From positions 17,439,437 through 17,503,436 of the forward strand of contig OZ316895.1 in NCBI GenBank assembly GCA_973895155.1: a DNA stretch of 64,000 bases, read 5' to 3'. Source of the DNA: Marsupella aquatica. Its lineage: Eukaryota > Plantae > Marchantiophyta. Position numbers and translations under genes: made by a program. Positions 434-57,975 of this stretch are shown one piece after another (within the stretch, counting starts at the first letter, position 1; every line of letters begins with the position of its first letter). The notes under the pieces are model-generated. The model was given only the letters and a program-made list of their open reading frames with translations, made no database searches and was not told the origin of the DNA.

Positions 434-756
434 TGTGGGGAGAAATCAGATCAGGAAAAACACTCCAAACATACACGTGCTCAATAGTTATGTGGTTCGC
501 CTCACGGTTGGCTACGTCCACGGGAAGACCAAGCTTTATTAACGGTTATGTGTCTACTCAAGCATCACCATAGCTCTCATCTCTTCAAGCTCTCATCTCT
601 TGCTATATCACTATGTTCTCTCTTGAGAACTCTCTTGTGTGTTCTCACACCACATAGAAGTTGAAGAGATAAGGACCAACTCTTCAACTAGGGTTTACTC
701 TAACCCTAGTTATCATACTAACCATAGTTCAACCCAAGACTGAGTTAACCTCTACA
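434..756 (-). repeat. 3' LTR of the copia element (323 bp)
   Basis: Direct repeat of 5791-6141, preceded on the - strand by the polypurine tract AGGGGGAG (759-766). Confidence 0.95.
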
Positions 757-950
757 AACTCCCCCTTGACTCACGTCTTGGGAGGGTTCATAACATTGTC
801 TTTTCCTTACAAGTTCCTCCGCGGGAAGTTCAAGATAGTAGGGCCAAAAGACCCTCCCCCTAATGCAAGGGTTAACTAGAACTAAGCCGTAGCCGATAAG
901 CCATTGGATGGAGTACTCATATAGAGACATTTTCTTGGTTAACTCTATAT

Positions 951-3900: not shown

Positions 3901-4986
3901 AATCTTTACGGATCCAATCCATAAAACTTTGCAAGAATGATTATTTCCCATCAAAATAGATCCGTTGATAGGAGTGTAGGATGAGAACAGTTCACGCATA
4001 TAGCACATGTGATACGAGCAAGCGGAATCCAAGATCCATTGACAATCCTCAACTTGGGAAGTGGTACACAATGCAAATCTTTCACTATCCTCTTCTCGAA
4101 CAACTACTTGGGTTGAAGAACCGACAACTTCTTTGAATGTGTCTTTGATGCAAAAATCCTTCTTCATGTGGCCCACTTTGTCACACTTCCAACACTTTAT
4201 CTCACGAGTAGACTTGGATGGTGATTTGGATCGAGATCTAGATCTGGATCTAAACCTCCTCCTACCAAAAGATCGGTCGTGGAACCTTCCTCGCTCCATG
4301 GGAAGTGGGTTAAACCTTTTGTTTTCATGAGATGGCTCCCTTGATTTGCCTCTTTCTACCAACAATGCTGTTGATGATGAGGTTGAGGTAGGATGAGCTG
4401 AAGAAACCAGCTTAGACTGCATGTCATCGGTCAATAGGGCACTCACCACATCATTGTAGGATATAGTTGTCTTATCACGGAATAGAAGAACTCGAGACAA
4501 AGATTGGTACGAAGGTGGTAGTGAGCTCAAGAGTTGTAAGGCTTTCTTTTCTTCGCTCAAATGCTCCCCCAAATTCTCTAGGTCAACCACAAGATCATTG
4601 AACTGATCGATATGATCTTGAATCTTGACTCCATCAGCCATTTTGAATTGCATAAGCTTCAGACTTGCATACATTCGGTTTGACATCTCCTTCTTGTAGT
4701 ACTTGTTGCCCAATGCTTGAAACAAGTTCGTCACCGTTTGTGTTGTTTTTTCCTCAAACTACTTCTTCACATTGTTTTTCAGGTACATGCCAACAATACT
4801 TACCGCTTGATCCTGGAGATCATGCCAATCATCATCTTCCATCTCCTTGGGTTGAGATCTTAGTACCTTGCCTAGGCCCATCGCCCTAAGTGCATCCCTC
4901 ACGTTACGTTCCCACATTGTCTAGTCCATTCGACCATCAAATTTGTCCACCTCAAACCTTTGACCTCCAATCCTAGTAGTCGCCAT
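951..4986 (-). pseudogene. copia gag-pol polyprotein with stops and frameshifts
   Basis: Starts MATTRIGGQRFEVDKFDG at 4986 followed by an in-frame TAG. Contains zinc knuckle CWKCDKVGH, protease WILDSACSYH, integrase LWHARLGH...IHSDVWG...RSDNGGEY, RT YVDDML and RNaseH GYVDADYAGD...HCDSQSAI. Split over ORFs 2581-4734, 2082-2495, 1165-2100 and 951-1217. Confidence 0.93.
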
Positions 4987-11600: not shown

Positions 11601-13625
11601 CTGGCTAAAGGAAAAGGCAGTCGCTGATGTGGTGGAGGCTTTGATTGGAGCACACTTGGTGGACGGGGGCTCTGAGGCTGCTCTTGCTTTTATGGAATGG
11701 GTGGGCATCAGTGTATATTTTGACAAGAATCTGATCTCTGAAGCAAGTATTCGCTGTGCTGGTGACATCCGTTTTGTTCAAGAGAAAGATCTTAGTAAAC
11801 TGGAGAATATTTTGGGGTACTCATTTCAGAACAAAGCTCTTCTAGTTGAGGCCCTGACACACGGATCATTTCAAGTTCCTTCTCATTATTGCTACCAGGT
11901 ACTTAAAACTTTCGCATTGTACAAAATGTTCAGAAAGTGTGAATTTCCGCAATGACTGTTTTTAGCAAGAAAATGAGTGAATTTTCCTAGTTTGCGTCGT
12001 GCGTATGTTCATCTAGTACGGTGAATGTAGAGGTGTTCTCGCTTTGTACACCCTAGTGAGAATCATTTCTACCCATTTACTCGTTGCAAATGCACAAAGA
12101 GCCTGAATGCTTGCAGTGCATGATTGGCCTGGAAAAAATGTAGATACAAACATCACCATCTTTAGAGTCCCCTTGTTTTCGTGGATCGATGATTGCTTGT
12201 ACGAGTTCTGGAATGTTTGAGTGATCTGCAGTATGAAGTAAGTGAAGTTAACGTATAGAAGGGAAGGGACTTTCATGTTGGTAAAATGGTAGTCACGCGC
12301 ATCTAGCATTGATGTCCTTTAGTTTCTCCAATATTTTTGCTTTTGCTTTGAACTCATGGACGAGCTTTGGGGGTATATTTAATAAATGATTTATGTGACA
12401 GAGGCTGGAGTTTCTTGGCGATGCGGTACTGGACTACCTAATCACACGTCATTTTTATGAAAATTTGCCCCACTGCCCACCTGGCCTTCTCACGCACCTG
12501 AGAGCAGCAACAGTGAGAAATGAAATCTTTGCTAATGTTGCAATTCGGCGGGACTTGTACAAGTTTCTCCTTCATGAGTGCCCAAGTTTTACCGAGGCCT
12601 TTAAGGAGTTGGTGCTGTCTAGCGAAACTGCGGAGCCTGGCTACGGTTGGGGAAGTCAAAAGTCAGAAGTCGTCACAAGTCCAACGGCAAGTTTAGCCAA
12701 AATTTCCTGTACTTGGCCCTGGTCTAGTGTCTCCTTTTCCATGAAGGGAAGGTCATCTGAAATTACTCAGAACTAGAGTTGTGCTTTAGATTACGTTTGA
12801 TGTGTTTCTGCAAGGAACTAACGCAGATTAAAGGTCTGTATTGGCATGGTCATGTATTCTAGCATGCATATTCAAGTTGACTCGTATCATATTTTCATTC
12901 TCAAATTATCGTTGGTGAGCCTTGGCTAAGCTGTTGAATGGTTTTGTCATGAATTACTGGCAGGTTCTTGCTGATTTGGTGGAGTCCCTTGCTGGTGCAG
13001 TACTTGTTGACACAGCATTCGATACCAGAAAAGTATGGTCTGTCTTTGAGCCTTTGCTGCAACCCATTGAAACTCCAGCCAAACTCTCTCTAAACCCAGT
13101 AAGTAAACTGCTCGAACTTTGTAGCCAAAAAAATTGCGAACCTGAGTACACAGCCACATTGGAAGGTACCCAAATGCTTGTCAAGTACACAGTAAGTACA
13201 GGGAACCAGATAATTGTGTCACGGGCAACGAAGCCAGACAAGAAGAGCGCAGAGCGAGAAGCAGCTATTGAGATGCTGGAAAAGCTGAAGGTTTTTTGCT
13301 TATCATTATACTGTTCGTTTGCTAGTGAATGCTGTTTTCCACTTGCTGACTTGCTGTTACACTTTCAGATTTCTCATACAATTCATGAGTCAAACTATGT
13401 TGGAGATGTTTTACATGATTGCCATTCGACATCTTTAAGGCTGGGAGTGTTCGACCACTCCTATCCCATGGACTAAGTCAACGGAGCTTCGGAGCCTGGA
13501 CAGGAATCCTGCCAGACACAAAATTCTCAAGAAGCGATGCTAAGGCACAAGATGCAGCAGAATCCTTAGCTCGTTGTGTGTTCTTCATGGGTTCGCCCTT
13601 GCATTTGATATCACAGAGGGCGTAG
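8699..13625 (+). CDS. Dicer-like RNase III without helicase/DUF283 (platform-PAZ-RNaseIIIa-RNaseIIIb-dsRBD), about 845 aa; possibly damaged
   Basis: Exons approx. 8699-8968, 9393-9883, 9980-10083, 10455-10660, 10782-10991, 11440-11898, 12402-12686 (GC donor), 12964-13290, 13440-13625. RNaseIIIa LERLEFFGDAFLK + KAVADVVEALIGA; RNaseIIIb RLEFLGDAVLD + VLADLVESLAGA; dsRBD LNPVSKLLELC...KKSAEREAA. The N-terminus ELHSTLVPKAF and FVQMANGPV resemble the DCL4-type platform/PAZ. In-frame TAG at 9861. Confidence 0.85.
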
Positions 13626-15635: not shown

Positions 15636-17798
15636 CTACGAAATATTTCATCCTTTGAGAGAGGCCCGGGACAAATAGCCGGAGATATTCAAACATGCAA
15701 TCGCTTTTCCGTAAGGTTGCGACAATTTCTGAAACTTCATTGTGATGAAATGCAACTGGAAATTTTCCAAATGGTGAGGGAAAATAAAACCTTTCAACAA
15801 TAAATGACTGCCATTAAACTATATGAGACCTAATGATTGGGCTTCAGTATTTATGAAGTCAATACTGGTACCATTTCCCGTTAAAGGTATATACAGTACG
15901 AGGAAACCTAGAGAATGCTACAAGCACATTGGGCAGAAGCCCATGATTGGCCTAAAAAACAGTTCATACAGCAATATCAAGTGTTGACACCGAAGGGACG
16001 AATGTTCAGATCTTGAAAACAAATCCTTCAACACGACGTGGCCGAAACAAACTGATGAGAGCCTCCACTATCTCAATATTCTGCATGTTTGAAGGGGAAA
16101 AGAGGTGTTTCATGCTGTACAACTAAACAGGGCCTGCATACTTGCGTTTCAATATATCTATGGTCAACACAACATCTAAAGCTTGCTGTTGGCCAAAGAT
16201 GTGTTGCAGTGTAAGTGGTGCTTGCATCATGGGTAAGGAAATTAGTTTTCCTTACCGATGATGCAAGCACACTGTCCTTACGTGCCACATGGAAATTGTT
16301 GGAACGCCTCACCAAACTTTGACTGTTCTCGTATGTTACCCAACTTTTGATAAACACTACAGATCATAGGTTGCGCTACATCCCAAGAAAAGACGTTTCT
16401 AGAAAACCCTGTGATAAGCTCCAAGTCCCCTAAGACAATTGAATAAAAGGGACATAAAGTGGAGCGATCTCCCAGGGTTTAAAAATGCCATTCACGATTG
16501 AGTACGGGCAGATTATTTACGTGCTTGGACCTAGTTTCCAATTCATTCTCTCTACTCTCAGGAGGCACTGTTGTGTGGAGGATATGAGTAAACCCCATCG
16601 AGCAGACGAAATAGGTGATATAAACATCAATGGAAAGTACAGGGAATTAGAAGAAAAGCTGACCCCCCATCCCAAAATTCTGAACAGCAAATGTTTCAAA
16701 GTGACCAATCTCAGTCCAAAATGAGTTTAGTAGTACCATTTTTCAATTTTTGAAAGGGCAATATCTACAAAACCTTAAATAGACTTGAATGTAACCTATT
16801 GTATTAACAGATTAGACAGTGAGACCCAGGTCCTGCTCGCAGATAAAGTTGAATGACCAAAGTGGATGCCAATCAAGGCGAATTTCAGACTGGAGCATGT
16901 GATTACCACATGACGTCAGACAATTTTCGTAACCTGGGTAATGAATGAATTGGTTTCAGAGTACATAGCTCGGCAATGCTGCTGCCAAATATCATAAGTA
17001 TAGTAGTGTAACATTATCAAGGACTAGAATTCACAAGCAAGGTTCAAAGACGGCAAGACACGTGTCGATAGATGTAGATGCAACTGCCTAGTCTGGCTCA
17101 CTATAAAACCTTCATTTTGATGAAGTCGAGTAAATAATTCAGAAATTTTCTTGCTTCTGGATCCCTTGCCAGTCAAATCCACGACATTGTCACCTCTGTG
17201 TTTCTCTCTTAATGGGAAATCTGTGGGTCAAGTTGATCGAATTACTTGTGCTTGACATATGTGCAGCTGAATTCGTGCCGAAATTGTCCCGACTACTATG
17301 CAAGAAAGAGTATATGACCACTCATAAATCAGACGCTGTCTCTCCCGTTACTAACAATATCGCCTTATGGCAGTTCTATGAGTACTTCGTCTCCATTGGG
17401 ATCCATGCACTGTAAAGCTTTCCTTGATTTTGTCCGTCTACTTGGAAAGCTATGAATTTCACAACTCGATTCGAATACAATTCAAAACCGACCCAGGTCT
17501 ACCTCTTGGCAGACATTCAGGTCCCATGACACTGTTGTCAAACTTCATTTATTCTCTCTCAAAAGAACTCTATTCACATGATTAAGTCGTCATCCTGGCT
17601 TCTAATATTCACTGCCCATGCTCCGGAAGGGACCGACGAATGAATCATTCATCGTCTCTAACCGAAACATTTGGATATCATCGACGGCAATGCCACAACT
17701 TCACAAAGACATCAACTGAGATTGTTTCGTTCGTAGTTTGCAGTGATTGTTTGGAGCAAACCAGACTACCAAAGTGCGATGTAATCAACAACAAGCAG

Positions 17799-18716
17799 CT
17801 AAGAGTTTGTTGTGCTTCCCGAATGATTCAAAGGCACGTGAACATCTCGGTATTTGGAAACATACGGTTCATGAGCGCCCGAATAGGGCCCAGCCCACCG
17901 TCCCTCGTCAATGTCACCGGCGTTCCAGATAGAAGCATAGAGGTACATGGGCTTCACAGGCCAGGCCTCACCATCCTTCTTCTCAGCAGTCCTCACCAGT
18001 TTTCCATCGATGAGCCACTCGATCTTACCCGGCAACCATCTGATGGTGTAAGCATGGAATTCAGAAGATGAATCGAAACTCAGCTGATGAATCTCCTCTC
18101 GGTTTCCTGTGCCAATAGTGTAGTAGTTCGTCTGCACACTGCCCTTATCCTTCCCCAGAAACTCGAAATCGATCTCATCCTGTGACTTGTCCCCCTCCAT
18201 AGACGATAGGTAGAAGCTGGTATTGAGCCCACTGGTGTCTCCGTCGGGGGTCTTGATCCTCACACTGAATGTGCCAGACTCGAACTGGACGTTCGTCCGC
18301 CATCGCGCTCCTCCTCTGTTATAAAAAAATAAGGAGATCTCCCTCTCTTCAGGATCATGTGCTACGAGTTCATGGCCATAATCGATGGCAAACTCTGGTA
18401 AAGGTTTGGTTGATGAGAAAGCAGCATGAAATTGCTCCACACTAGTGGTGGTCATCGTAAAAGCAGCTGAAGCCGGTCGCCCAAGTCCAAACTGGGATGC
18501 TAAATCTCCCTCAGGTTGCACCAGCTCCTCCTCTCCAATACGCAACCCTTCCACATTTTGCCTGTGAATGGAATAGCCACCCACAGTCTCCCTAGAAGGT
18601 ACCACTCCTGGTGATGAGGACTCTACAGGCTGAGTTACTGTTGTGGAAGTGTGACATATGATGTGTGAGAAAATGACCAAGTGGATAGCAATGAGGAAAA
18701 TGGAACAGCTCCTCAT
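17799..18716 (-). CDS. EG16: GH16 endo-glucanase of the EG16 clade (XTH-related, no XET_C domain), intronless
   Basis: Catalytic DEIDFEFLG. EG16-typical RGGARWR, YLSSMEGDKSQ, QTNYYTIGTGNRE, KPMYLYASIW and DEGRWAGPY; the protein ends shortly after the core. Confidence 0.92.
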   Translation of the reverse strand: MRSCSIFLIAIHLVIFSHIICHTSTTVTQPVESSSPGVVPSRETVGGYSIHRQNVEGLRIGEEELVQPEGDLASQFGLGRPASAAFTMTTTSVEQFHAAFSSTKPLPEFAIDYGHELVAHDPEEREISLFFYNRGGARWRTNVQFESGTFSVRIKTPDGDTSGLNTSFYLSSMEGDKSQDEIDFEFLGKDKGSVQTNYYTIGTGNREEIHQLSFDSSSEFHAYTIRWLPGKIEWLIDGKLVRTAEKKDGEAWPVKPMYLYASIWNAGDIDEGRWAGPYSGAHEPYVSKYRDVHVPLNHSGSTTNS

Positions 18717-34700: not shown

Positions 34701-37700
34701 ACTGACCTGGTGGCATCTATTTACTTTGCACCAGCTGATCAGGCTTCTACATTGTGCTGGACAAATAGATGATGCTCAGCATTATGTTCTCAAAGCTGAG
34801 AAAGCATGTCCGAAATTTCACGCAAATGCGGGGCTGTCTTTTTGCAAAGGGTTGATAGCGTACTACTCGAAAAACCGCCCTGAAGCTCTACAAGTGAGCC
34901 TCTGTCTGGAGCTTGCTCATGTGTATTGTATTATTACTGTGAAGCTTGACCCACAAATCGTTATTAGGAAACCGTCTTGGATCAGATGTATATTGCATGC
35001 ATGGCATGTTTGGTTGGTTCAATACATTCTCATCGTCTAGTATACCGACCGGTTGCTGCAGACTCTCAAAAGCTAGAATGACCAGTTATAAAAATTCGGA
35101 TAAATTTGGCAATCATTTGACATTGCCCTTTCAGTTGTGGTGGATAGATGTTTAATCGTGCACGAGCGGATGCCGAATGGGGCAAGCTAGCAATTTATTC
35201 CCTCATAGAAGTCTATCTCAATATTGATAAGGAACAAGTACAGAGTGAAGAGAACTTGGATGGCAACATTGGTTGCAATGAAGAAGGAATCAAAGCCGCC
35301 TGGAAGCTATTAGGTGAAAGTAGGTACAGTTTACATCCAAGCATACATCAAGCTGGCTACGTTGCCATGTTGGCCGGTTCGAAGATTTAGTGCACCTGGA
35401 AGAGACGAATGTATTTAATTGACAAGAACAGTTAATTTGAAGCCATCCTCGTTGTCGTAAACCAAAATGGACGATACCAGTTAATTGCATCCTCGTTGTC
35501 GTCAATCTACTTGTGTTGTGAATATATGTTTCTTTACTCTTTCACACATAAGCTGAAAATCATATGTTGAGGGGCATAATTAAAGTCCTGATTGAACTCA
35601 TTTCTGAAGTGATGCGAGATGCTGGAATTTGACTATGGATTTTCAAAATCTGTGCAGGCTATTGGATTGCAAGTCAACAAAGCAATTAGTGCTGGAGTGC
35701 TACGCAACAATGGCAACTAGACAGAAAGCAGACATTGAATTTGCCCTGGGTAGATTGAGCGAGGCACTAGGCGAGGAGGAGAAAAGGGTTCCAATCTTGA
35801 TGGCTATTGCAACTGCACGGACTTTGCTCAACCAGACCGCTAGAGCAAAGATCCAGCTACAAGTCATCGACAGATCAGTTTACAAATGGCATGACAGTGA
35901 AGATTTTGAGCGGGCGTGGCTCATGCTTGCTGGCATTCATATGCAGGTAACTTGTGCCCGAACTGTGAAATGCAGTTAGTATCCTGCCTTTGTTTTTGTT
36001 TTTCCTTTTGTCTGAGAAATCGAATCAAAAGAGATCCGTGTCTGGTAGGCGTTCAGACAATGACTAATTCGAACTCATTTAGGGTTAGGAGTGGGCGGCT
36101 GTATGATGTTAGGGTGAAGCTAGGCACTTTTCGAAGCTCTTGTCTCTGCATGAGATTCAAGGGCCAAAAGTCAAGCTCGGAGAAGCTAACTTGTGGGGAT
36201 GACATCTATCGAGGAAACCCAAGAAGGTTTTCGTGAAGTCCTGTGGTCTTGAGTGTTCAGCTATTCCCGGATGTCATCTCCATCCTTTCCACCGCAGTAT
36301 ACATCACAGGCACACGGACTCGAGCCATAACGAAGGTAAAGAGAGGCGCACGCGTACCCACGAATCATCGCTGAATAAATGGTTGCAGAGATTCAAGGTT
36401 GTTCTTCGTATATATGGATTGTGGGCCCGATTCATTCAATACTGCCATTGCTATGTTGTCGAGGATCTCCCCTCTTCCTACACAGCAGTGGCAGTCTTAA
36501 ACGAATGAGGCCTACCTACCCATCCCAATGTTGTCGCAACTCCCACTGTTGTCGCAACTCGAACCCGTACAGAAGGGGAATCCGAGAGGTTCGAGGATGA
36601 CGGAGAAATGGTGGACAGATAGAAGCTGAAAGATGATGACAGGACGGTCGAAAGCAGACATATGTGTAGTGGGCCCATTCATTGCATACTGCCATGGTGT
36701 CAAGAATCTCTCCGATTCCACCACACTCCTGGCAGTCTTCAGCGAATGAGGTCTACCTACCCATCTATTTCCTCCTTAAGGCGAAGCGCATAGAAGGGGA
36801 GTCGAGAGTTCAGAGACTGAAAAAGAATGGTGGACATATGTAAGCTGTAGAATGATGGCAAGACTGTTGAAAGAGAAGATACGGGTTGGGGGCCCGATTC
36901 ATTGAATGCCGCCATTGCCATGGTGTCGAGGATCTCTCCTCTTCCAAAATAACAATGGCAGTTGTCAACGAATGAGGCCTACCTATTCATCAACATGAGG
37001 GAGAAATGGTGGCCAGATACAAAGCTATAAACAGATGGGAAGGCAGTTGAAAGCGGAAATATGGGTTGTGCGCCGGATCCATTGACAACTGCCATTACTA
37101 AGGTGTCGAGGATCTCTTCCCTTCCAACACAGCAGTGGCAGTCTTCAACGAATGAGGCCACCTACCCATTTACTGTCGTCACTAATACGAAGCGTGTGCA
37201 AGGGGAAGTCGGGAGTTAAGAGCATGAAGGAGAATGGTGGACCGATACAAAGTTGTAAAAGTGAAAGAGGCGGTTAAAAGCGAACATATGGGTTGGGGGC
37301 CGATTCACTGATGACTGCCATCGCCATGGTCTCCAGGATCTCTCCTCTTCCAACAAAGCAGTGGCAGTCTTCAACTAATGAGGTCTAACTAGCCACCCCC
37401 TGTCGTCGCTAACACAAAGCATATGGAAGGGGACATCAACAGTTAAGAGCATGAAGGAGAAATGGTCGACAGATACAAAGCTGTAAAATGATGGCAAGGC
37501 CGTCGAAAGCGGACATATGGGTTGGGGGCCCTATTCACTGCCGACTGCCATCGCCATGGTGTCAAGGATCTCTCCTATTTCAACACTGCCATGGTAGTCT
37601 TCAACGAATGAGGCCTACCCACCCATCCACTGTCGTGCCCATCGCGAAGCATATGGAAGAGGAAGTCGAGAGTTAAGAACACACAGGAATGGGTGCCTAC

Positions 37701-39254
37701 AGAAGGGGCAGTCGAGAGTTCCGCGCATGAAAGAAAAGGTGGAGCTGTAGAAATATGGCTAGACGCTTGAAAGCGAGCTTTGAAGGAATGCTAGCGGAAC
37801 GATAGTTGTTGTCAAGACATGCATAGCGGCGAACCCAGACAAGAACAGCGCGGCTCGAAGATTTCACCTCCACTAGCTACAAAGTAACTAAGCGATGATA
37901 CTGATTTGCAAAACTGGGACAACGAGTGATAATGTCGACACATGTCCTACTGCACCTAATGTAGGGCTGAGATAATCAGTGTAGACTGTTCCGTTGGGAT
38001 CGACCCCTGACATCGGATACAGCTGGAAAGTGTCTGACACCGACCATCACTCCACACCATGATAAATCTATTTCCGTTAATTCAATCACTGCACACTGGC
38101 TGTCGTTTGGATGGAATTCGCAATGATTTTTGCGCAAAAATCAGTGCACACTGTATATTCCTTTGCTTGACGCGCTCCCATGTAGTTCACACTGGACCTA
38201 TACCTGATAGGTAGACTTTGGGGTCCTGGTTTTTGGGTCTGTAGTAGTTCTTTGTTTTTTTGATTGCTTGCCTTTTTTGGCCCCTTGGTGGTCCCCCTTG
38301 ATTGGGCCCTTTGCGTGAGGGATCATGTTTCCAGGTTCGGTGCCCTCTATTTTTTGGAGATTTGAGATATATATGTATATTACTACATTTTGATGTGTTA
38401 TTACTGAAATGTACTGAAATGAGCACAGCTGCGTGGTCTTATGAGAGGACGACAGACATGGTGGATACAGTAGTATGAGTGATTGGTGTCCCCCTTGGCC
38501 CAATTAATTTGTTGAAGACTGCCGTGGTGAGCGCTGTCTTGCCATTTGTACCCTCGCAATGGCAGTCTGCAACAAATGAGACCCGTGACTATTCACTTTC
38601 ATTCGTACAGTGAGCAGACGTCAGGGACAGTTTAGACCCTGAAGGAAGGCGAGGAAAGCAAGGTGTTCCCATAATGATGGGAAGTAACCTGCCAAGGGCC
38701 TACCAATTCCAGGGACGTCCATAGGGGATGCGCATTTGCCCATTGATGGTTTCACTCCTGTCATCAGGATCTCCTACAAACAAATTGGTGTCTCCGCTGT
38801 CATTCTGTGACTTGGTTGAGACTTTTGTTGCGTAGCGTAGTTTACTCTGCCTTTTCTTTGTGCCCGGCGCAAACATTTCTTCTTTGGGTAATACCTTAAT
38901 CTAACTATTCATTTTGTCAAAATTCTGCAGAGTGGGAAGCACGATGCTGCAGAAGAACTCTATAGGAAGTGCTTGAAACACAACAAAGGTTGCGGCCGAG
39001 CATGGGCATGTTTGGGATTGATAAAGGAGACTCGCCATTCTTTTAACGACGTAGCGACGTGTCTTGAGAATGCTTGGAAATGTCAGAAGGAAGCATCTCC
39101 ATCAATGGGTTATCACTTAGGACTTGCATATCTCAAGCAGAAGAGGTACATTGAAGCAATATCAGTCTGCCATGAAGTTCGTAAAACCTGTCACAATTAT
39201 CCACAAATCAAGAAGGAAATTCTACACAAAGCTCGCTGGTGTGTACGGGTTTGA
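31716..39254 (+). CDS. IFT139: IFT139/TTC21B-like TPR protein, C-terminal half only (about 592 aa)
   Basis: Nine in-frame exons: 31716-31941, 32361-32548, 33162-33281, 33531-33646, 34030-34210, 34735-34893, 35148-35323, 35658-35946, 38931-39254. TTC21-like motifs LGKAYIVTHNYPKAIEQY, FNRARADAEWG, EDFERAWLMLAGI, CLKHNKGCGRAW, GYHLGLAYLKQKRYIEAI, YPQIKKEILHKAR. Confidence 0.88.
36405..37780 (+). ncRNA. Tandem array of six pre-miRNA-like hairpins (units 180-241 bp) in the last IFT139 intron
   Basis: Each unit has a 5' arm ATTCATTG..ACTGCCATTGC pairing with a 3' arm GCAGTGGCAGTCTTCAACGAAT, and a lower stem ATGGGTTGGGGGCC / GGCCTACCTACCCAT. Conserved 21-mers start at 36489, 36730, 36956, 37136, 37362 and 37592. 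Confidence 0.7.
38198..38420 (+). mobile_element. Probable non-LTR retroelement 3'-end remnant
   Basis: T/G-rich tail similar in character to the 3' ends of the elements at 54843-55100 and 60570-60800; no ORF. Confidence 0.3.
38478..38600 (+). ncRNA. Seventh, dispersed pre-miRNA-like hairpin of the same family
   Basis: ATTTGTTGAAGACTGCCGTGGTGAG pairs with CTCGCAATGGCAGTCTGCAACAAAT. 21-mer TGGCAGTCTGCAACAAATGAG at 38560-38580; loop unrelated to the array units. Confidence 0.65.
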
Positions 39255-40016: not shown

Positions 40017-41605
40017 GAATCTTATGAATTTTGTGGAGTGCGCACCAATTCACCAACAAGTTGACGTGGGTTGGAGACGATTGAGGGCTGTTTACACTTG
40101 AATGTGACTCACTGTACACTTAATTAATGAAATGCATGAAAGACTGTCGAGCCTTAAGTGGCCACTACCCTGTTGTGCGCGGACTAATACACAAATGAAC
40201 AGCTCCAGACATGACTGACAGCAATTTTGAGTGGGCCCGGTCTGGAATTCTGTTCATGCTTTTCAAAGTGGGGGATGCATGAAGTGAAGATATTTGTGCT
40301 CGGCGGACGCATGTGAAAAACATTTCTTCGAAAAAAGTTTCAGAGTTGTGGGAGCAATTCTTTTCGGTTATCTTCGAGCCGGGCAAGTAGCTCAAATGTC
40401 CGACTCATCAAGATTATTTGTCGATTGTGTAAATCAACTTTTGAGATTGAGAGTTGTTTTGAAAAGCTTTCTCCATTACTTCTTTAGATGTGGAAGTCTG
40501 AATTGTTTGTTGTCTCCACCTTGTACCCTGAGCTGAGGAACTTTGTGATTCGTAATTGGGTAACTTTAGTAGCAAATCAAAAGGGATCCTCCTCGTCGAG
40601 AGCTACCGTGGTTGAGCAGACGAAGGGAGGGACATCAAACCCTCAAAGACTGGAGGAAATGGATTTCCCATGTTACGTACGGGTGGGCTACAAACTGGGT
40701 TTCCGGGCAAGAGAATTTGTTTCATTATCTGGGTCATAACATAGTGCATAAGAATACGTACGAAAACCTCGTCTGACAAGTTAATGGGAGTACACTAAAA
40801 CCTTGTAGGGAACCTATAAACTTCCAGCAGGTCCCTGGAAGTGGTAGGACGCTTAAATTTGACATTTAGCAGGTCCCTGGAAGCACCTGATATAATTCCA
40901 CGTTCAGTAGGCCATCGACAGGTGCACGGTAGCTTTGTTACTATGGAGGCAGTGGCCTCACTAACTTTGATCATTCACAAGATCAGAGCTAAAGCCATCC
41001 AAAGAGTTATCGACGAGTTGACCCGTATACAGCAATGGTGCTGGAAGTCTCTCTGTCAAACGATGTCTTGTATTGCATGCGAAGAATGTTCAATAGCAAG
41101 TTCAATGTTATTGACATCGTCACGAAGATTTGACTCTTTCATAATACAGGATGGAATCGGGCAAGAATTTCTTTGACAAGGCAGTTTTAGCACTTAACTC
41201 AATTCTGAATGGATCCATACTCTACTTGATAGCGCGCACATGCACCCTAACCACAGTACTGGCCTACATCCGTGGTTCGGAAAACCCATATGCACACAAC
41301 CAACTCCATGCTGAGGATCTGACAGGTATTTTGGATGTAAGCTTGTTAGTGCCTGCCACTAAACAGGCAGCTGTACATTCGATGAAGAACGATAAAATAT
41401 TTACAACTTAGATTTTCAGCGTGCTTGGAACTAATTCTGATATGTGGTAGAACTGGAGATGAACCGTCCAAGCCTTCTCAAATTGGTGAGCTTTTGAGAT
41501 ATCTACAGGACACTTCCGAATTCTAAAGGGTTGGGACTCTCCAGATTGCTCCTTTAATTTACAGACTAATATGAAGAAGAGCTGGAGAAGTGATCAACCC
41601 TTTCA

Positions 41606-44218
41606 TCATGTATCACCTTCTGCCGTGGAATCAGATGGAGCACTAAGGAGAAGCAAGGAGTTGAGGAAGCCCTTCTCGTATGCTCCATTCTTGACGTAGC
41701 CCACCATATAGTCAGCAAATGAGATCTCTGGATACCTGCGCGCCTGCGAGCCATTGCCCAGCAGCTCTGCTGCAGGGGCAATTTTGGCTGCCGCATCAGG
41801 AGAAAAGATAGCGGCTGCAGAGTAGCGTGGCTGCTTGGAGTTGACAACGACCCTGTGCATGCCGCTCCTATACGTCCCATTGCTCAGTATCTGCAGTGCG
41901 CATCACGGAGGATATGCAAAATTAATCGCGAATGCATGAGCATTGTCAGGTGACTCAGTACTCTGTAAATGACAATAGTTTCACACACAGTAACTGTGGC
42001 ACACTTAATTGACAAGATTGAAGCAAATTGAAGAAGAAATCAAGCAGGTTTTGTGCTGATGTCTATCTTCCCAGTTTATCAATAAGGACATCAATTCCAT
42101 ACGACAAGTTTCGTTACTTTTGCAGGGAGCCAACAATGCGAAGGGCTGAAAGAGATCGTCTTCCGAGTCCATTGCTGGTTAAACAGAAAGAAAATTAGCT
42201 AGAACAGGTAGTGGAAGCCTCTTCTAGCAAAACATTCAATTGGCAGAAACTGGACAGACTGTTTGAGCAGTGCATAGGGTAGACTACACCAAAATATTAA
42301 GGAGGAAAGGCATAGTGAATTGAAGCAATACTTAGTGACAATAGTGACGCAACATATGCATTGGAATTTACAGTCCCAATGTGACAAAGGAAATACATTG
42401 AGATGGTTTTGAATGACTGATAAGACATTTACAGCTGACAGCACTTCAATAAACGGATCTATCGAACACTCAAAAGAACCAGTTAGTAGATCATGACAAT
42501 TCGAGTAGCCTTGAGAATTATTTTCACAAAAAAGACTAGCGTGTATGACAGAACAGAGTTCCTCTTCCCCAAATCCTGCTTATTGCAGACACCATAACAT
42601 GCATGGAATCTTCATATTTCACAAGTACCAACCTACCTGTATTTGATCTGCAAGATTGACCACGAAGGCATTGCGCCTAGGGGTGACATCCACCCAAGGC
42701 CCTCCATATTTTTGTGCTTGCAGGCCGCCGACTTCATCCTGGTACAGGATGGTGATGCCACCGGGATCAGAATGCCCTGATAGTCCGAGAGTCAGCCGGG
42801 GCTCGGGACAAACTGGGTAGAAATTGTTGTTGATGTAAGTGAAGGCGTGCGCTTGGAAGGCTTCGTTGAGGTAGTCTCTTCTCAGTCCCAGGTTTTCAGA
42901 CAGCACGGCCAGCAGCCGCCTTGCAAGCCCGGTCACTTGCTTGGAGTACTCTGCAGCCGTCTCTCTGCCCCACAGAACAGACCCACATCGAAACATGATG
43001 TGAGATTGTCTCCCAGCTGGAACTAGAGTACACCATTTCCTACTAGGGTGTTGTGAATTCCAGCATTAATTATTCTGGTGTGGCACCACAAGACCGGTTA
43101 CTTTTCGGGGCCAGGAAAGCTAACTGAAATGAATCAATGCTTTGAAACACAATTATTCGCATGAAATTATAAGCTCTAATAGCTAACAGGCTCGATGCTC
43201 TCCAGAAGAAGTTGAAGCTCATATAGCAAGCTAGAAGATAACTAAACTTCATACTGACTGGATGAATGCTCTCAAGCAGAAATTGAGGTTCCGTATACCA
43301 TACATCGATTGTAACAAGACAGATGCTCTCACGAAAATTTGAAGCTCTTATGGCATAACTTCATACTGACCGGATGAATGTTCTCCAGAGAAAATGAAAT
43401 TCATATAGCCAAGCTTCATGCTGACTCAATGGATGCTCTCAAAAGGTTCTACGATTCATTGCCAACATATTTCCCTCAGACGGTTCTCTGAAAATCGAGT
43501 TCTTCAATATAAATATATATGCACTGGTCTACCACACTTCTTGATCTACATGGCTCATAACAGCTATTTCTTTACTCTGAGATTTGGGACTGTCACGAAT
43601 TGATAGTGGAGTAGTTCATTTCTAAAGTGAAAATCTGAGGACAGATGAGACATTCGGATCACTGTACCTGAAACCGACGGGTTTCTCGGGCCATCGAGAG
43701 GTATCCGGGTTGGTAATCGGCTCACACTTGAGACGCAGAAAATCACTCCAGTCCTTGCTGCGCGTGGCGTAGAGGGCCGGGACATTGAAATTGCTCCCGA
43801 CGAATTTTGCCTTCTCCTCCAGCGGCAAGCTGAAGAAGTTCCTCACCAGTCGCATGTAGTCCTCTACCAGCGATTGCTCGACTCCATGATTCACCACCTG
43901 GAAGAATCCCCATTCCTCGCACGCCCTGGCGATTTGCCGCTTGAATTCCTCCGCACTCTTCCCTCCTGCCTCTAACTGCGCCATGTCCAGCGTCGGAATC
44001 GCTGGTGATTCTTCCCTTTCTCGTTGTTGCTCCCATGGTGCATCAGCTGCTGTGGGATGGCACTTGATATGCGACTGGGGAACCTTTTCGGGCTGCTTCA
44101 TGGCCATGGACTGCGAAGGTGGCAGCCAGCTGAGGCCGTTCACGTGCCCGAAGACCTTGCCATTGCCAGCCACCTCGTGTGCCTCTGCCTCGAAGTGCTT
44201 GGAGTACTCTTGTCCCAT
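41606..44218 (-). CDS. 2-oxoglutarate/Fe(II)-dependent dioxygenase (DOXC class), 387 aa
   Basis: Exons 43668-44218, 42637-42964, 41606-41890 (1164 nt). DIOX_N ACEEWGFFQVVNHGV; NFYPVCPEP; Fe ligands HSD...H (MHRV); 2-OG-binding RYS. Confidence 0.95.
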
Positions 44219-46175
44219 GGATTTATACTGAAGCCGTGAAAGAGTGATGTGGAGCCGAGAGCATCGATCCGCAGTTGCGAATTCGCTCAATCTGTCACTG
44301 ATCTGTTTGAAATACAATTGTCCATCCAGTCGGTTCCTTAGAGCTTAATGCTCAGAACCAGCTCCATCTGTTCACTGCTGAGAATCTCAAGCAGAGCCTT
44401 GTCTTTGCTTCCTTCACAGCTCACTCACGTGTTCACTTGCGCTTCTCAGAAATTCTCAAGTGCTCAATTACAGTCAGTGTCCTCTCTTAAGAAGCCGTTC
44501 CTCTGTCTCCTTCACTGACAAAATCTGATCGACCTTCAGGAGACTGAAACCTCCTCTACAGAACAGGAGTGCATGATGATCACACAACTCTCCCGACATT
44601 TTCCATTTTTCTTCCTCCACCCATAATGCATCGTTGCTTCATGAGGGAGAAAGTGAGCACAGCAGAGAACTGTGACCAAAGTGGGCAAAGGGTGTTACAG
44701 ATTTTCTTTTGAATTTTGATTTGCATTCCTCTTGGACAGGGTAATTGTCTTGCGTGCTTTGAGTGAGGGAGAAGCCATTGGAGAATCGTTTTTCCTTTCA
44801 ATTTAGTCTCCACCAGCCCTCGGTATCAAAGGGCTAATAAATTCTAGCCCAACCTCCTTCGAATGAAAACAATTTCCCAAAACGCTTCAGTTGTAACCAC
44901 AACTTGAAGCGAGAAATTAGGGACCGAGTAGGGAAACTCACATACACCATAGCCAAAGTAATAGACTTATCAGCAATGTCCTAATCTCTGTTTATTGTGT
45001 TTGTTCTGTTGTTTATCCTCTAAATATCACAGATCAAGTAATCAGAGCTTAGTACAGTACACTAGTCCAATGTCCATCTGTTGTTGGACTGTATCGTAGA
45101 TATTTGATAATTAATGTTGAACATAAATGACATTATCAGGAAATCAGACACATTGTCGAGAGTTGGCAAGTAGGCTGGGAAACTAGATTTCAAGGCATGT
45201 GCGAGCTGTGGGGTGAGTTGGGCATGGAAAAGGTACATCGTGATGGAAACTAAATTTCTAGGAATATGCGAGTGGTGGGGATTGTGAGTTCGGCATGGAA
45301 AAGGTACATCATGACCCCTTTAGGTTTGTCCTCATGATTAGTAAAAAATGGTACCCAAAATCCAACAGCCATGGAGGTTTCCTGCCAAAATGACATTTTA
45401 GTAAACAGACCATGAGAAAGAAAAAACAGGATTGGATAAAGAAATACTGTAGTAAGTGTGTTCAGTGTTTAGATGAGAGACAACTTCAAAACTAAAATAT
45501 TCATGGCCAAGATAATTCGACAGCCTTTCCCTGTATTTTGTCTGAACGCATCGAAGCAGGAGAAAACTTCTACTGTACATGGAATGGGAATATGGCACAG
45601 AGAGGCTTCTAGGTGAGCAACTTGAAGGTGTTGTCACTTTCAAAGTACAGCGGCATTTGGTGGGACCTGATGCACCTTCCCTATAACGTGCAGCTATTTA
45701 CTGTGACTGAAAAGCCCGCTGAAAATATCTGGATTCTAGTGAACACTCCTGCCTGTTTATCAAGCCTGTTCACAAATCTTCTGCTTCTTGTGAATGCATG
45801 TGATTCCGAAGTAACGTTTCTGATTACCTTTTGGCTCACATTTGTGATATCGGCGGATCGGGAGCCATATCGAGAGCCATATGACATGGGAAATATGACT
45901 CGCACCAACCACCTATGCAAACATGGAAACAAGGACCTCATGGCCTTATATCTCATGTGTCTTATGCAGATCTCGATGCAGATTCCCATCGGGAGATCTC
46001 GTTTCTCAACGAGAAAATGTAGATTTGCTATAAAATGTACACCACCTAAGAAATAATTTTTGCTTGCCACCTTTTCTACTGCATTCAACTTATGTACAAT
46101 TCCAGAAATGGTGGCTAATCTGGCTGTGTAATTCTCTAGTCCCCGGTACTGTAAACTCTCAGTCTCCTTGTGGCA

Positions 46176-54732: not shown

Positions 54733-57700
54733 GTGCATCTCAAAACTCAAAATTCGATGGACCTTACCCCCATAATTATGGGTACCTACACACAAAAACT
54801 CAAAAAGTCACCAACTACTAAAATTCATAGTTCACAACTTTTTTTTGCCTCTAAAAAACCATTTGAAATTCATCCAAAAAGCCAACATACAAAAGGGGTG
54901 GCCCACAAAGGGGGTCGGCACCCAGGTGGACCAAAGGTCGAAAGCCCTAAAGACCAGGGAAGCCAGCACCAGGAGAGAGGGAAGACCAACGATGGAAGCC
55001 AAACAAGAAGTTCAACTACTGCAGCGGGAGGGACAAAACTCCAAAAGACCGGCCAGTGGACAGTGACCGGCATGGTACTGAACAGTGGTTCCACGATAGA
55101 GTCAACAACTATCAGTCTTAGCAACAGGGCATCCTCAACTCCAGATCAACAAAAGAATTCATGGTGGTCGGGGAGGGACAGGGGGTACTTGAAGAACTTC
55201 ATCATGAAGTTCCCACAGTCTCGCCCACGTGCCGTAATCAAGGGACATGTCATTAAGGGCATCTCCAAAGGTAGATTTGCCTGCCCGAATTCTGGATCTA
55301 TGTCGGGCCCAATCCTTACGAATGTAAACTCCCAATTGCTGCCATGCTTTCACAATGACACCCTGAGACGACGATTGGGTGTGCTCAATGAAATGAGTAG
55401 ACCTGTCTTTTCATATATACCAACATATGACAGCCCTCAGAGTGGACCAGAGTTTTACTGGTACATCCCAATCCTCTGGCAGAGGAGCCCCAACAAAAAT
55501 GTGAATTGCCTGCAGGTGAATGATGTTATTTCTTGCAAAAGCAGTCCGTTGCAAGATGAATTGAACCCAAAGCCAGACAGTGGATGAAACATGGCAGCTC
55601 CAAATACAATGCACCAAGTCTTCTTGCTGGTTAAGATTGCACCGAGTGCACCAAGTGAGAGGGTCAGTTGGTGGTGATTTTGGGAACCTCCAGTGCTGGG
55701 TCGCAGGAATCCTATAGATCATCTACCATAGAAAACAATTCTCATTCGCTGCCCTGAAATTGTGCCAAGTGTTGGCCCACAAAGCCTGGAGATTGGGCTG
55801 CCAATTCAGCCGGGCTGCCCATTTCCTAACCGCCTTGTGCACAGTCGTTCTGAGGGGGCCCTGGATTTCTCTAAGATGTGCCGTGCTGGTCTCTAGAATG
55901 GGGATGCCATCCTTCCACTCGTATTGAATAAGCACCATAAAGCTATCCTTGGGTCGTCCAATGCGTTGCAGGGATGTGGTTGCTGTCTTGTGGGACCGAA
56001 TCACCACCTGGTGCAAGATAATACCAGGTGGGGGAGCTGAGTTGTCAGTTCTAAGCAGGAGCCCATTAATTACCTTGAAAGTTCTGATCGGAGTAGACGT
56101 ATCATTGAATTGCTGCCATTGAGAGGTGATGTGGTTTCGTTGAACCTTGAACTCCCGGATAAGAAAGATGCCAGAGGGCAACATCCCCTCCATAAAGAGG
56201 GGGATCCTCTGTCTGGGGTTGCTGTGTAGTTCCGGTATACTAACAAGGTTTCTAATCAAATTTCAATAGGCAGCAGCACAATTACCTGGTAATCTCAGGT
56301 TTGGTCCATCCTCCCACCTAATGAACTCTCCAGTTCCACTAGTGACATCGCTCATAGAGGTCAACCCTGCTCTCTTAAGCTTCCTCTGGGGATTGGTGAT
56401 GCATTTGGCCTGGTTGGGCTGAATGTGGTTGAGAATGAGGTCTCCAGAGGGGGAGTTGAAGCCATCCTTCGAGGTGGCCAGGAGCAGTGGGCCGCAGGTT
56501 CTTCTTGATAACATTCCAGCCAGTGCAAATGTTGTCCACACCTTCGATCCAACCAGCGGCAAAGTGTGGCATTGGGAGACCACCCAAGAGAAATCCGCCA
56601 ATCCCCACTTCTGTTGTGAGAGCATTTTAATCTTGTACTGTAGAATGCGGCGCAGAGGGTGGTGGTCATCTTCCGCCAGAGCCCAGATGATGAAGCTCCC
56701 TGCAAGAGCCTTGAATTGTGCTGCTAGGGAGATTAATCCCAGACCTCCAAACTTCCTAGGGCGTGTTATGGTGGAGAAATTAACCCTCGATCTCGCCTTC
56801 TCATTCTGTCCAGCCCAAATGAAAGAAGTGATCTTCTTCTGTAAAGCGTCCAGTGTGCATTGCTGTCCTGCCCAAACTGTGAGCATATACCAAAGCGTGC
56901 TCAAAACAAGATGGTTAGCAACGGTGACTCTGGCAATTAGAGATCCAGAACTTTTATGAATCTTATCTAATCTGGATTCAAGCTTCTCAGATAGGGAACG
57001 AACCATTTGCGGCTCGAAGATTCCTTGTGCAAAGGGAATGCCAAGGAGCTTGGTTGCAGACTGAGCATCCTCCCACTTCCAAGGCAGGCAATTGAACTCA
57101 ACGGGGACAGGTCGGGAGAGATGAATGCAGCCTTAGTTTTCTCCCATATACAAAACAAACCAGACGCCATGCCAAACAAATCCAATATTCTTTTGCATGA
57201 ATCCACAAATTCCATCACAGCACGTATGACCATCGCCAAGTCATCCGCAAACAGATTATGGACACAGTGGACATCCACCTCATGAATTTGCACCCCTTGG
57301 ATTGTACCCTGATTTGTTTCCCAGAGGATCATTTTGCTTAGCGCATCAATAGCAATCAGAAAGATAAGCGGCGATAAAGGGCAGCCTTGGCGGACAGACC
57401 GAGCCAGCTTGAACGGAGTAGTCATTTTACCATTGAGGAGGATTGCAGATGACGCCGAGACTTGTGTAGCCCGTAGGAACTGCATGATAAGTCCATCGAA
57501 TCCAGCCTTCTCCATGAGGGCGATAAGGAAACTCCACTCCAGTTTGTCAAAGGCCTTCGTGACATCAAGTTTCAAAAGAAAGTAGTCCAAGCCGGTGGTC
57601 TCCGCATGATGTAGTGTTTCGTTAAGCAGCATCAGGGAATGATGAATATTCCTACCTGGAAGGAATGCAAATTGTTGCGGGGTGATGAAGCGCTGGAGAA

Positions 57701-57975
57701 TAGGATTGAGGCGTAACTGGAGTGCCCCTTTATACAAGATTGGGGCATAGTTCATAACTTTTCATAGTTAATAACTTTTGGCCATAAAGATTGATAGTTC
57801 ACGCCGTCTACCAAAGTCATGCTACATAACTACACTGATTACTACTGTAGAGGGCTAGTAAGTTTAAAAATAAACTTTTATATAACCTTGTGAAAAAATT
57901 ATAACCATTCTTTTATGGCCAAAAGCCATCTCCTTAATTTGAAGCTATGCTTAATTTTGAAGCTTTGAGATACCC
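54733..57975. mobile_element. Tourist/Harbinger-like MITE (about 320 bp) split by the LINE insertion
   Basis: Imperfect TIRs: GTGCATCTCAAAACTCAAAATT (54733) and the reverse complement GGGTATCTCAAAGCTTCAAAATT (ends 57975); flanks TTA / TAT. Confidence 0.55.
54843..57745 (-). mobile_element. 5'-truncated L1-type LINE (ORF2 RT + zf-RVT), frameshifted
   Basis: RT motifs QFAFLPGR, KLDVTKAFDKLEW, SVRQGCPLSP, LFADD; RKFGGLGL; zinc finger CTRC...EDLVHCIWSC. A-tail near 54843; 17-bp TSD CATAGTTCA(C/T)AACTTTT at 54826-54842 and 57746-57762. Confidence 0.93.

Follow-up and report, generated by a model that had tools for sequence, protein, structure and literature searches.

Host gene and intron

The hairpins lie in an IFT139/TTC21B gene encoded on the plus strand of the window (the whole 64-kb stretch of DNA that was analysed). 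Protein matches point to a liverwort, and the nearest named relative is Calypogeia. The 3′ part of the penultimate coding exon (35677..35946) matches residues 1162-1248 of the solved IFT139 chain 8bda_E with an E-value of 7.3e-17, and the last coding exon with its stop codon (38931..39254) matches residues 1247-1352 of 1355 (E 2.5e-30). Because the flanking exons cover these residues, the intron between them is the last one. The last exon also matches positions 109-209 of the 209-position Pfam profile ARM_TT21_C (PF25063) with an E-value of 7.5e-39 and a score of 134 bits versus a cut-off of 35. The C-terminal TT21 ARM/TPR domain is thus collinear with solved IFT139 (8bda_E residues 1162-1352), which identifies the host gene as IFT139/TTC21B. 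The penultimate exon ends in ...ATGCAG and is followed by the donor GTAACT. The intron (35947..38930, plus strand) is 2,984 bases long, has GT...AG ends and is in phase 0, and the frames of the open reading frames 35608..35979 and 38892..39254 are joined in phase across its splice sites. It contains all seven hairpins described below and one high-copy repeat. The 8bda_E matches of both flanking exons and the Pfam match bear out the preliminary description of this DNA, which had placed a hairpin cluster inside the last intron of a flagellar IFT139 gene. From bryophyte biology, IFT139 is expected to be transcribed during spermatogenesis.

Architecture and copy number of the hairpin array

When the window was scanned with the consensus 21-mer, allowing up to three mismatches, seven matches were found, all on the plus strand and each with 0-2 mismatches. 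The number expected by chance is 0.01, and none of 100 shuffles reached seven. Six of the 21-mers form a tandem array of about 230 bp per unit, and the seventh lies about 950 bp downstream; the successive distances are 241, 226, 180, 226, 230, and 968 bases. Tandem Repeats Finder reports a period-230 array at 36994-37678 with 3.0 copies and 79% matches. The six tandem units and the dispersed seventh copy of the preliminary description were recovered, with all seven 21-mers at exactly the positions given there.

The coordinates of the hairpin units are given without strand. Unit 1 (36414..36527) has its 21-mer at 36489-36509 and the partner arm at 36429-36449, unit 2 (36655..36768) at 36730-36750 and 36676-36696, and unit 3 (36881..36994) at 36956-36976 and 36896-36916, respectively. 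The 21-mer of unit 4 (37061..37174), at 37136-37156, is identical to the consensus and faces a partner arm at 37076-37096. Unit 5 (37287..37400; 21-mer 37362-37382, partner arm 37303-37322) is the weakest and is possibly decaying. Unit 6 (37517..37630; 37592-37612 and 37532-37552) is followed by a partial seventh repeat unit (37631..37800), which is spacer-like and has no hairpin; it aligns with the spacers and shows short matches to those at 36792-36834 and 37188-37221. Unit 7 (38485..38598; 21-mer 38560-38580, partner arm 38506-38526) is an old dispersed paralogue.

Between the array and unit 7 lies a dispersed, transposon-like high-copy repeat (38131..38463) that stands outside the hairpin family. 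Its summed contig depth is 750-3050, compared with 23-200 in the sequence flanking it; all four contig runs show this, with many loose ends. Given their contigs of 67 and 185 kb, two of these runs (X1 and X3) were taken as DNA. The hairpin region itself is single-copy, with one 27-kb contig of X1 covering it at a likeness of at least 85%, a threshold that more diverged genomic copies would escape. At this likeness, a satellite or transposon origin of the hairpin unit, which the preliminary description had named as an outcome that would speak against it, was ruled out by the single-copy depth.

Hairpin folding on the two strands

On the plus strand, each unit folds into a long hairpin of about 110 nt that carries the 21-mer on its 3′ arm. 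The z-scores of units 1-7 are -5.33, -3.79, -2.31, -2.49, -1.55, -3.96, and -4.18, and 0, 0, 3, 2, 16, 0, and 0 of 200 shuffles fold at least as well; in five of the seven units, no more than two shuffles match the plus-strand fold. The corresponding minus-strand z-scores are -7.76, -2.91, -5.56, -5.26, -0.96, and -4.67 for units 1-6. Unit 5 folds no better than shuffled sequences on either strand. The paired positions of the 21-mer on the plus strand number 16, 16, 15, 15, 12, 16, and 17 of 21, and in unit 1 the 16 paired positions become 19 on the minus strand. Duplexes of about 22 bp with a few mismatches had been proposed for all units. Such duplexes are present on the plus strand, but with 12-17 of 21 positions paired this wording was generous, and the duplex of unit 5 is poor. 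The proposed lower stem of about 15 bp in the tandem units stands, as positions 22-35 below the 21-mer form approximately 11-13 pairs per 14 positions in the six units. Unit 7 has no lower stem.

In plant DCL1 substrates that are processed from base to loop, the lower stem that separates the single-stranded junction from the first cut is about 15-17 nt long. In units 1-6, positions 22-35 are opposed and mostly paired, a distance that fits base-to-loop DCL1 processing; this feature is absent from unit 7. The MFEI on the plus strand is 0.63-0.84, under the value of 0.85 that is often quoted for plant pre-miRNAs. Axtell and Meyers (2018) reportedly require one foldback, no longer than 300 nt, with neither secondary stems nor large loops in the duplex. 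Six of the seven units contain only symmetric loops of 1x1 to 3x3, and unit 5 departs from this form. The same authors are said to allow at most five mismatched duplex positions, of which no more than three lie in asymmetric bulges. Counted by eye, units 1-7 have 4, 3, 5, 5, >5, 4, and 2 mismatches on the plus strand and 2, 3, 4, 3, >5, 4, and 2 on the minus strand. Six units therefore stay within five mismatches on either strand, units 3 and 4 being borderline on the plus strand. Their requirement for small-RNA reads is reportedly a 20-24-nt miRNA with its miRNA*, a 2-nt 3′ overhang, and a precision of at least 75% in at least two libraries.

On the basis of its sequence and predicted folds, we designate the array a candidate MIRNA locus. 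We put the probability that it is a MIRNA-type locus, on either strand, at roughly 60%. As to the strand, we tentatively favour a version in which the MIRNA family is cut from the intron of the IFT139 pre-mRNA. Since the hairpins are intronic, this sense-strand reading needs no promoter of its own.

It is also possible, if rather doubtful, that the same type of cluster is expressed from its own minus-strand transcript, antisense to the IFT139 intron and uncoupled from the flagellar gene. In that case the conserved arm, which is the 5′ arm on this strand, would supply the guide as UCAUUCGUUGAAGACUGCCA plus one variable letter, which also begins with U; a U stands at the matching minus-strand start in all seven copies. 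The minimum free energy is lower on the minus strand in five of the seven units, by 3.1 to 11.9 kcal/mol, with a sum of -332.2 versus -294.9 kcal/mol on the plus strand, and the z-scores are better there in four units (1, 3, 4, and 6). However, the energy gap arises mainly from two inherited A-opposite-C positions (14 and 20) that are common to 5-6 units, and for units 2 and 7 the plus-strand fold is slightly the better one by both energy and z-score. In unit 5, the z-score is better on the plus strand although the energy is lower on the minus strand. The 21-mer pairs at 17-19 of 21 positions on the minus strand versus 12-17 on the plus strand. Duplex cells that wobble on one strand only number 16 for the minus strand and 5 for the plus strand, but when counted as events they are about 7 and 5, and the lower-stem wobble cells lean to the plus strand (9 versus 5). 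The RNAalifold consensus is -34.76 with 40 pairs on the minus strand and -26.81 with 37 pairs on the plus strand; its covariation term is slightly better on the plus strand (-4.03 versus -2.81). A separate MAFFT and RNAalifold analysis of all seven hairpins misplaced a 6-nt indel, which makes its pair counts unreliable, and per-unit folds were used in its place. An antisense transcript would also require its own promoter, and if it included unit 7, that hairpin would be only about 330 bases from the last exon of IFT139. Because most units fold better on the minus strand and a 5′-U 21-mer is available there, co-transcription with IFT139 is unproven. Folding does not tell the strand, and therefore does not tell whether expression occurs in antheridia or sperm, as had been supposed.

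Conservation of the 21-mer and the hairpin

The 21-mer is the best 21-column window in the 292-column alignment of the unit, with an identity of 0.905 versus 0.584 overall (identities are mean pairwise values of the six tandem units). Outside it, the identity is 0.81 in the 5′ lower stem, 0.76 both in the upper stem plus loop and in the 3′ lower stem, 0.67 in the opposite (star) arm, and 0.57 and 0.44 in the two spacers. The view that the 3′-arm 21-mer is the best-conserved part of the unit thus holds (0.905 against 0.44-0.81). Over the whole-unit alignment, one of 20000 column shuffles reached the conservation of the 21-mer. Within the hairpin columns alone, 1765 of 20000 did so, which is not significant. 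The tandem units are 80-86% alike, and conservation extends beyond the 21-mer throughout the hairpin.

Conservation is higher in the upper stem and loop (0.76, with 0.84 in the best window) than in the partner arm (0.67), a point on which the preliminary description was silent. This order is unusual for MIRNA paralogues and may reflect the youth of the tandem copies.

Beyond the duplex, blastn detected nothing in unit 7 that resembles units 1-6. It keeps 19 of the 21 letters of the block together with a complementary partner arm. Both letters of pair 15 have changed, C:G having become U:A, and pair 14 has closed as G:C. As unit 7 retains only the duplex, with a compensatory change, it is the duplex that appears to have been conserved, as in old MIRNA paralogues. 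On the plus strand, the one-sided changes in the block of unit 6 (position 4) and of unit 2 (position 13) still pair, as wobbles. The pattern seen in the 21-mer and in the arm opposite it points to selection acting on a small-RNA duplex.

Organism B has a second haplotype, in which position 13 of unit 2 carries the consensus letter. Of the 19 changes in 215 nt for this copy of unit 2, one lies in the block, one in the partner arm, and five, plus a 2-nt deletion, in the loop; these are too few per region and give no clear sign of selection. Several of the differences listed for organism B (at 36910-36955, and near 37214-37301, where the depths are 38.6 and 76.4) represent paralogous units aligned to one another, not alleles.

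The conservation data also bear on a more sceptical explanation, in which the array is a tandem repeat of recent origin with a unit that is imperfectly palindromic by chance, either silent or giving rise to heterogeneous siRNAs of the hairpin-siRNA type, with no precise miRNA or trans target. The limited likeness of the tandem units, the conservation of the whole hairpin with no significant outlier at the 21-mer, the possible decay of unit 5, and the folding of both strands are all in keeping with it. However, the spacers have drifted to 0.44-0.57 while the hairpin has stayed at 0.67-0.905, a difference that calls for either constraint or local gene conversion. The retention of just the compensated duplex in unit 7 and the low copy number of the unit also argue against it. 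Moreover, MIRNA genes, rather than long perfect inverted repeats, typically have stems with regular single mismatches and about 15 nt of lower stem. We consider this explanation doubtful.

Searches for relatives and targets

No Rfam 15 family reached its gathering score with the array, the two best matches having E-values of 0.43 and 0.95. The 21-mers had no match in a full-text literature search, and their sequence was not found in the Pellia miRNA supplements. No match to the sequence was present in file 2 of the Marchantia supplement (PMC4788410), whose long cells were covered in part, or in PMC10841014. The family was previously described as not being a recognised conserved plant miRNA, and the Rfam and liverwort lists compared here agree with that. 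A metagenome scan returned 0 loci with a strict pattern and 42 loci with a loose pattern; the latter had one match apiece and showed no tandem copies. Five of these loose-pattern loci were inspected; they lie in GC-rich or wholly open-reading contigs, lack a miRNA-like duplex, and were rejected as chance or bacterial coding matches. When the 64-kb window was scanned for targets of both candidate guides, only the hairpin loci and partner arms scored. The palindromic-repeat explanation gains from the lack of a target in the window and of a relative in the collections searched.

Plant snoRNAs are often polycistronic and intronic, but another structured RNA or cis element, such as intron-encoded snoRNA-like genes or hairpins for a dsRNA-binding protein that regulate IFT139 splicing or 3′-end choice, is very improbable, since the AUGAUGA and CUGA motifs in the spacer before unit 2 and the conserved upper stem and loop are offset by the lack of an Rfam match at the gathering score and by a 50-bp hairpin with neither C/D nor H/ACA shape. 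The snoRNA form was rejected because the C-box-like motif occurs in that one spacer and is absent from the other units, in addition to the Rfam result.

Proposed processing and significance

Returning to the MIRNA-type reading, the seven hairpins are likely to be a lineage-private MIRNA gene family amplified by tandem duplication, as judged from their sequences. A Dicer-like gene is also present in the same window and shows that enzymes of this kind exist in the organism. In the proposed pathway, a DCL1-type Dicer would set its cut about 15 nt above the stem base and so free a duplex of 21 nt. The conserved-arm strand of this duplex, which begins with U (UGGCAGUCUUCAACGAAUGAG on the plus strand), would be loaded into an AGO1-type Argonaute and direct mRNA cleavage. 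Where copies differ, at positions 4, 8-11, 13, and 15, their target preferences could have shifted. In the sense-strand version, the small-RNA output would follow IFT139 transcription. A fuller claim, that the last intron of IFT139 holds a homologous miRNA polycistron of six to seven hairpins and that each round of transcription in spermatogenesis delivers a diversified private miRNA family, is in our view unlikely.

Knowledge of liverwort miRNAs comes almost wholly from Marchantia and Pellia. If the array is a MIRNA locus, a leafy liverwort with six to seven homologous hairpins would demonstrate that tandem amplification in the style of MIR395 occurs in liverworts too, and the locus would present a young family with birth, diversification, and decay (unit 5) side by side. 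Under the sense-strand version, the locus would be a naturally occurring example of miRNA output coupled to a host gene that is specific to sperm. Should the antisense version be correct, it would be a warning that strand calls for hairpins made from DNA alone are unsafe. With an intronic polycistron, liverworts would have their first example of several homologous hairpins in one polycistron, and in bryophyte sperm cilium assembly would be intrinsically tied to a small-RNA programme.

Comparison with known hairpin clusters

The animal C19MC cluster releases many tandem copies of one hairpin family from the intron of a host gene. Its hairpins are about 70 nt long, are processed by Drosha/DGCR8, and lack the plant-type lower stem, which is about 15 nt long. 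C19MC and the liverwort array are alike in their intron-hosted tandem architecture alone and are evolutionarily unrelated.

Among bryophytes, the portion of PMC9291395 used here gives 51 pre-miRNAs in introns of protein-coding genes in Marchantia polymorpha, and the candidate hairpins of our array likewise lie inside a protein-coding gene. According to the same portion, polycistrons are common in Physcomitrium patens, accounting for 25% of miRNAs, whereas the one polycistronic locus that it reports for Marchantia consists of two unrelated hairpins (miR390 and miR11676) instead of six to seven homologous ones (PMC9291395).

If the locus is real, it would be another case of a known type of plant MIRNA tandem cluster, and the rice MIR395 arrays would be its closest counterpart in architecture. 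In the part of PMC4860694 that describes them, rice miR395a-g comprise seven homologous hairpins within 1,002 nt. Both systems, as far as that part extends, have 6-7 paralogous hairpins placed head to tail over about 1-2 kb (PMC4860694), with a mature arm that is kept while the rest drifts and a presumed single polycistronic primary transcript. The two systems also differ. MIR395 is ancient, seed-plant-wide, and has known targets, whereas the liverwort array matches nothing in Rfam or the liverwort lists compared. The expression of MIR395 has been shown, whereas the liverwort array is known from DNA alone. Finally, the MIR395 arrays are intergenic, whereas the liverwort array is situated in an intron of a protein-coding gene.

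Location and layout of the hairpin family

The hairpin family resides in the last intron of the gene for the flagellar protein IFT139 (TTC21B), as the preliminary description had proposed. Two ORF pieces at 35677–35946 and 38913–39251 match residues 1162–1248 and 1247–1352 (of 1355), respectively, of the solved IFT139 structure (8bda_E), and the last exon matches the Pfam family ARM_TT21_C. Splice sites are present at 35947 (GT) and 38929–38930 (AG); the last intron therefore spans 35947–38930 and is in phase 0. Judging from the ORF positions, the other introns in this region of the gene each measure a few hundred bases.

When up to three mismatches were allowed, the consensus of the conserved 21-mer (the block) matched the 64-kb window at the seven positions previously listed (36489, 36730, 36956, 37136, 37362, 37592, and 38560), all on the + strand and with 0–2 mismatches each, compared with 0.01 matches expected by chance; 0 of 100 shuffles reached seven. 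The layout of six tandem units and a dispersed seventh is also borne out. Tandem Repeats Finder detected an array of period 230. The first six 21-mers are spaced 241, 226, 180, 226, and 230 bases from start to start, and the seventh starts 968 bases after the sixth. Units 3 and 4 are separated by a spacer (36977–37135) approximately 45 bases shorter than the others, giving the 21-mer spacing of 180 compared with 226–241 elsewhere, which points to a deletion inside the array. An 18-bp unit, TCCCAATGTTGTCGCAAC, occurs twice in tandem directly after hairpin 1 (36523–36560). This duplication is recent, given that a diverged haplotype (described below) lacks it, with 19 letters missing there.

A Dicer-like gene, whose exons lie at 11380–13476 on the + strand, is located approximately 23 kb upstream of the array. 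Its RNase III region matches the structures of plant DCL4 (E = 2.4e-31), DCL3 (9.2e-23), and DCL1 (3.2e-17), and the best match of its C-terminal piece, which includes a dsRBD, is DCL1 (1.1e-16). The − strand carries a copia-type LTR retrotransposon (1165–4758; gag, integrase, and RVT_2), a LINE-like reverse transcriptase (56263–57761; RVT_1), and two genes. One is a 2OG-Fe(II) oxygenase gene (41566–44344; DIOX_N and 2OG-FeII_Oxy), which converges with IFT139 at the 3′ end of the latter. The other is a single-exon GH16/XTH-like gene (17802–18716), whose best named matches are from Calypogeia fissa (88% identity) and Marchantia paleacea (68%) and thereby place the window in a liverwort, probably a leafy one. 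A near-perfect 24-nt inverted repeat at 16218–16270 (96% complementary, 5-nt loop) is no kin of the hairpin family.

Conservation among the units

Among units 1–6, the mean pairwise identity is 0.905 in the 21-mer, 0.81 in the 5′ lower stem, 0.76 in both the upper stem with its loop and the 3′ lower stem, 0.67 in the partner arm ("star"), and 0.57 and 0.44 in the spacers. Of all 21-column windows in the full 292-column alignment, the best conserved coincides exactly with the 21-mer described earlier, and its conservation was matched by one of 20000 column shuffles. When the hairpin columns alone were shuffled, 1765 of 20000 matched it; therefore, the firm claim is that the whole hairpin is held while the spacers drift. 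The 21-mer is the best-kept part of the hairpin, as had been stated, but without significance on the within-hairpin test alone.

Unit 7 provides a stronger argument than the column shuffles. A blastn comparison with units 1–6 found no likeness, and yet unit 7 retains 19 of the 21 block letters, and its partner arm is still complementary. At pair 15, a two-sided change has turned C:G into U:A, and pair 14 has become closed as G:C. The duplex alone has survived in this copy, resembling old MIRNA paralogues. The main non-miRNA explanation invokes a young, palindromic tandem repeat, either silent or producing heterogeneous siRNAs only. The within-hairpin shuffles leave room for such a repeat, the duplex of unit 7 speaks for a MIRNA family, and we regard the repeat as unlikely.

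Hairpin folds and the transcribed strand

On the + strand, all seven units fold into one long hairpin each, whose 3′ arm holds the 21-mer. For units 1 to 7, the z-scores are −5.33, −3.79, −2.31, −2.49, −1.55, −3.96, and −4.18 on the + strand and −7.76, −2.91, −5.56, −5.26, −0.96, −4.67, and −2.87 on the − strand; 16, 16, 15, 15, 12, 16, and 17 of the 21 block positions, respectively, are paired on the + strand. Unit 5 is a poor hairpin because of its z-score of −1.55 and its 12 paired positions, and it looks to be in decay. The duplex had been described as having a few mismatches; the hairpins themselves stand, but the mismatches number four to six, and unit 5 folds poorly. Every unit has an internal loop at positions 8–11 of the duplex, and the letters that vary in the partner arm face these positions. 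The lower stem ascribed to the tandem units is present in units 1–6, extending through positions 22–35 beneath the block, and is absent below the block in unit 7.

The evidence on the strand of transcription is split. The + strand was an assumption of the preliminary description. It is favoured by the position in the intron, where no separate promoter is needed. Predicted folding energy favours the − strand. The MFE is lower on the − strand in five of the seven units and on the + strand in two (summed, −332.2 compared with −294.9 kcal/mol), the z-score is better on the − strand in units 1, 3, 4, and 6, and 17–19 positions of the 21-mer are paired on the − strand compared with 12–17 on the + strand. 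The alifold consensus energy is −34.76 on the − strand and −26.81 on the + strand, with covariation terms of −2.81 and −4.03, respectively. The − strand folds better because A-opposite-C positions of the + strand become G-U wobbles. In the duplex, 16 wobble cells occur only on the − strand and five only on the + strand; however, positions 14 and 20 are common to five to six units and therefore count as two events, which leaves approximately seven events for the − strand compared with five for the + strand. Wobble cells in the lower stem lean to the + strand (nine compared with five). If read from the − strand, the conserved block falls on the 5′ arm, which likewise offers a 21-mer with an initial U in all seven copies. 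A sense, host-intron version of a MIRNA-type locus is possible, and we favour it narrowly; a MIRNA-type locus transcribed from the − strand is only slightly less probable.

Copy number and the second haplotype

The stretch is present in four public contig runs of unrecorded kind, none of them listed as RNA; because the contigs of X1 and X3 reach 67 and 185 kb, we took the runs for DNA. In X1, a single 27-kb contig at a depth of 23 alone covers the hairpin region at a likeness of at least 85%, and this single-copy depth rules out, at that likeness, a high-copy satellite or transposon as the nature of the unit. The segment at 38131–38463, between the array and hairpin 7, is a dispersed high-copy repeat inserted in the same intron: in each of the four runs, its summed contig depth is 750–3050 compared with 23–200 alongside, loose ends are numerous, and contig joints skip approximately 305 bases. 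A small non-autonomous transposon is its probable identity, and the window contains no second copy.

The organism that is the source of X3 and X4 (organism B) has two alleles at similar depth, one equal to the window and the other diverged. At 35800–39100, the diverged intron version differs by approximately 3–9% in some places and hardly at all elsewhere; the sample could be heterozygous or mixed, or the two versions could belong to two subgenomes. Of 215 positions across unit 2, 19 are changed in the diverged allele: the 21-mer has one change, at position 13, which brings back the consensus letter; the partner arm has one, inside the internal loop; five, together with a 2-nt deletion, fall in the upper stem and loop; the 3′ lower stem has one; and the other eleven lie further out. 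In the same allele, the 3′ arm of unit 1 has six changes, with none in the 21-mer. These counts per region are small and neither demonstrate nor rule out selection. A single contig covers the loop, block, and 3′ stem of unit 5 (37313–37415) at about double depth, and we therefore infer that both alleles are identical there. Several other apparent differences are paralogous units overlaid on each other.

Candidate MIRNA family and known systems

The proposed miRNA family is partly supported. The long hairpins, the conserved block, and the duplex of unit 7 are structural and evolutionary signs that mark it as a candidate, whereas the strand evidence is divided. We put the probability that the family is a MIRNA-type locus, on either strand, at roughly 0.6. 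It is most likely a lineage-private MIRNA family, in which units 1–6 would have arisen by tandem duplication of an older copy akin to unit 7. By analogy with the established plant pathway, DCL1 would cut each stem approximately 15 nt up from its base, AGO1 would take up a 21-nt guide with a 5′-U, and the guide would direct target cleavage. The suggested link to sperm hangs on the transcribed strand because only the sense reading ties the hairpins to IFT139.

The family had not been recognized as a conserved plant miRNA, and in Rfam no family reaches the gathering score; mir-8338 comes closest at E = 0.43, followed by a lncRNA at E = 0.95. The 21-mers were not found in searchable paper full texts, two Pellia supplements, file 2 of the Lin et al. 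Marchantia supplement (in which long cells are incomplete), PMC10841014, or the main text of a liverwort miRNA review (PMC9291395). A metagenome scan gave 0 loci with a strict pattern and, with a looser one, 42 loci with one match each and none with tandem copies; the five inspected were chance or coding matches.

According to PMC9291395, Marchantia has 51 intronic pre-miRNAs and only one polycistron, of two unrelated hairpins, and 25% of Physcomitrium miRNAs are polycistronic. If real, the family would be unusual among liverworts in its copy number and among plants in its location in a flagellar-gene intron. The closest architecture is that of the rice MIR395 arrays, for which Table 1 of PMC4860694 gives seven hairpins in 1,002 nt.
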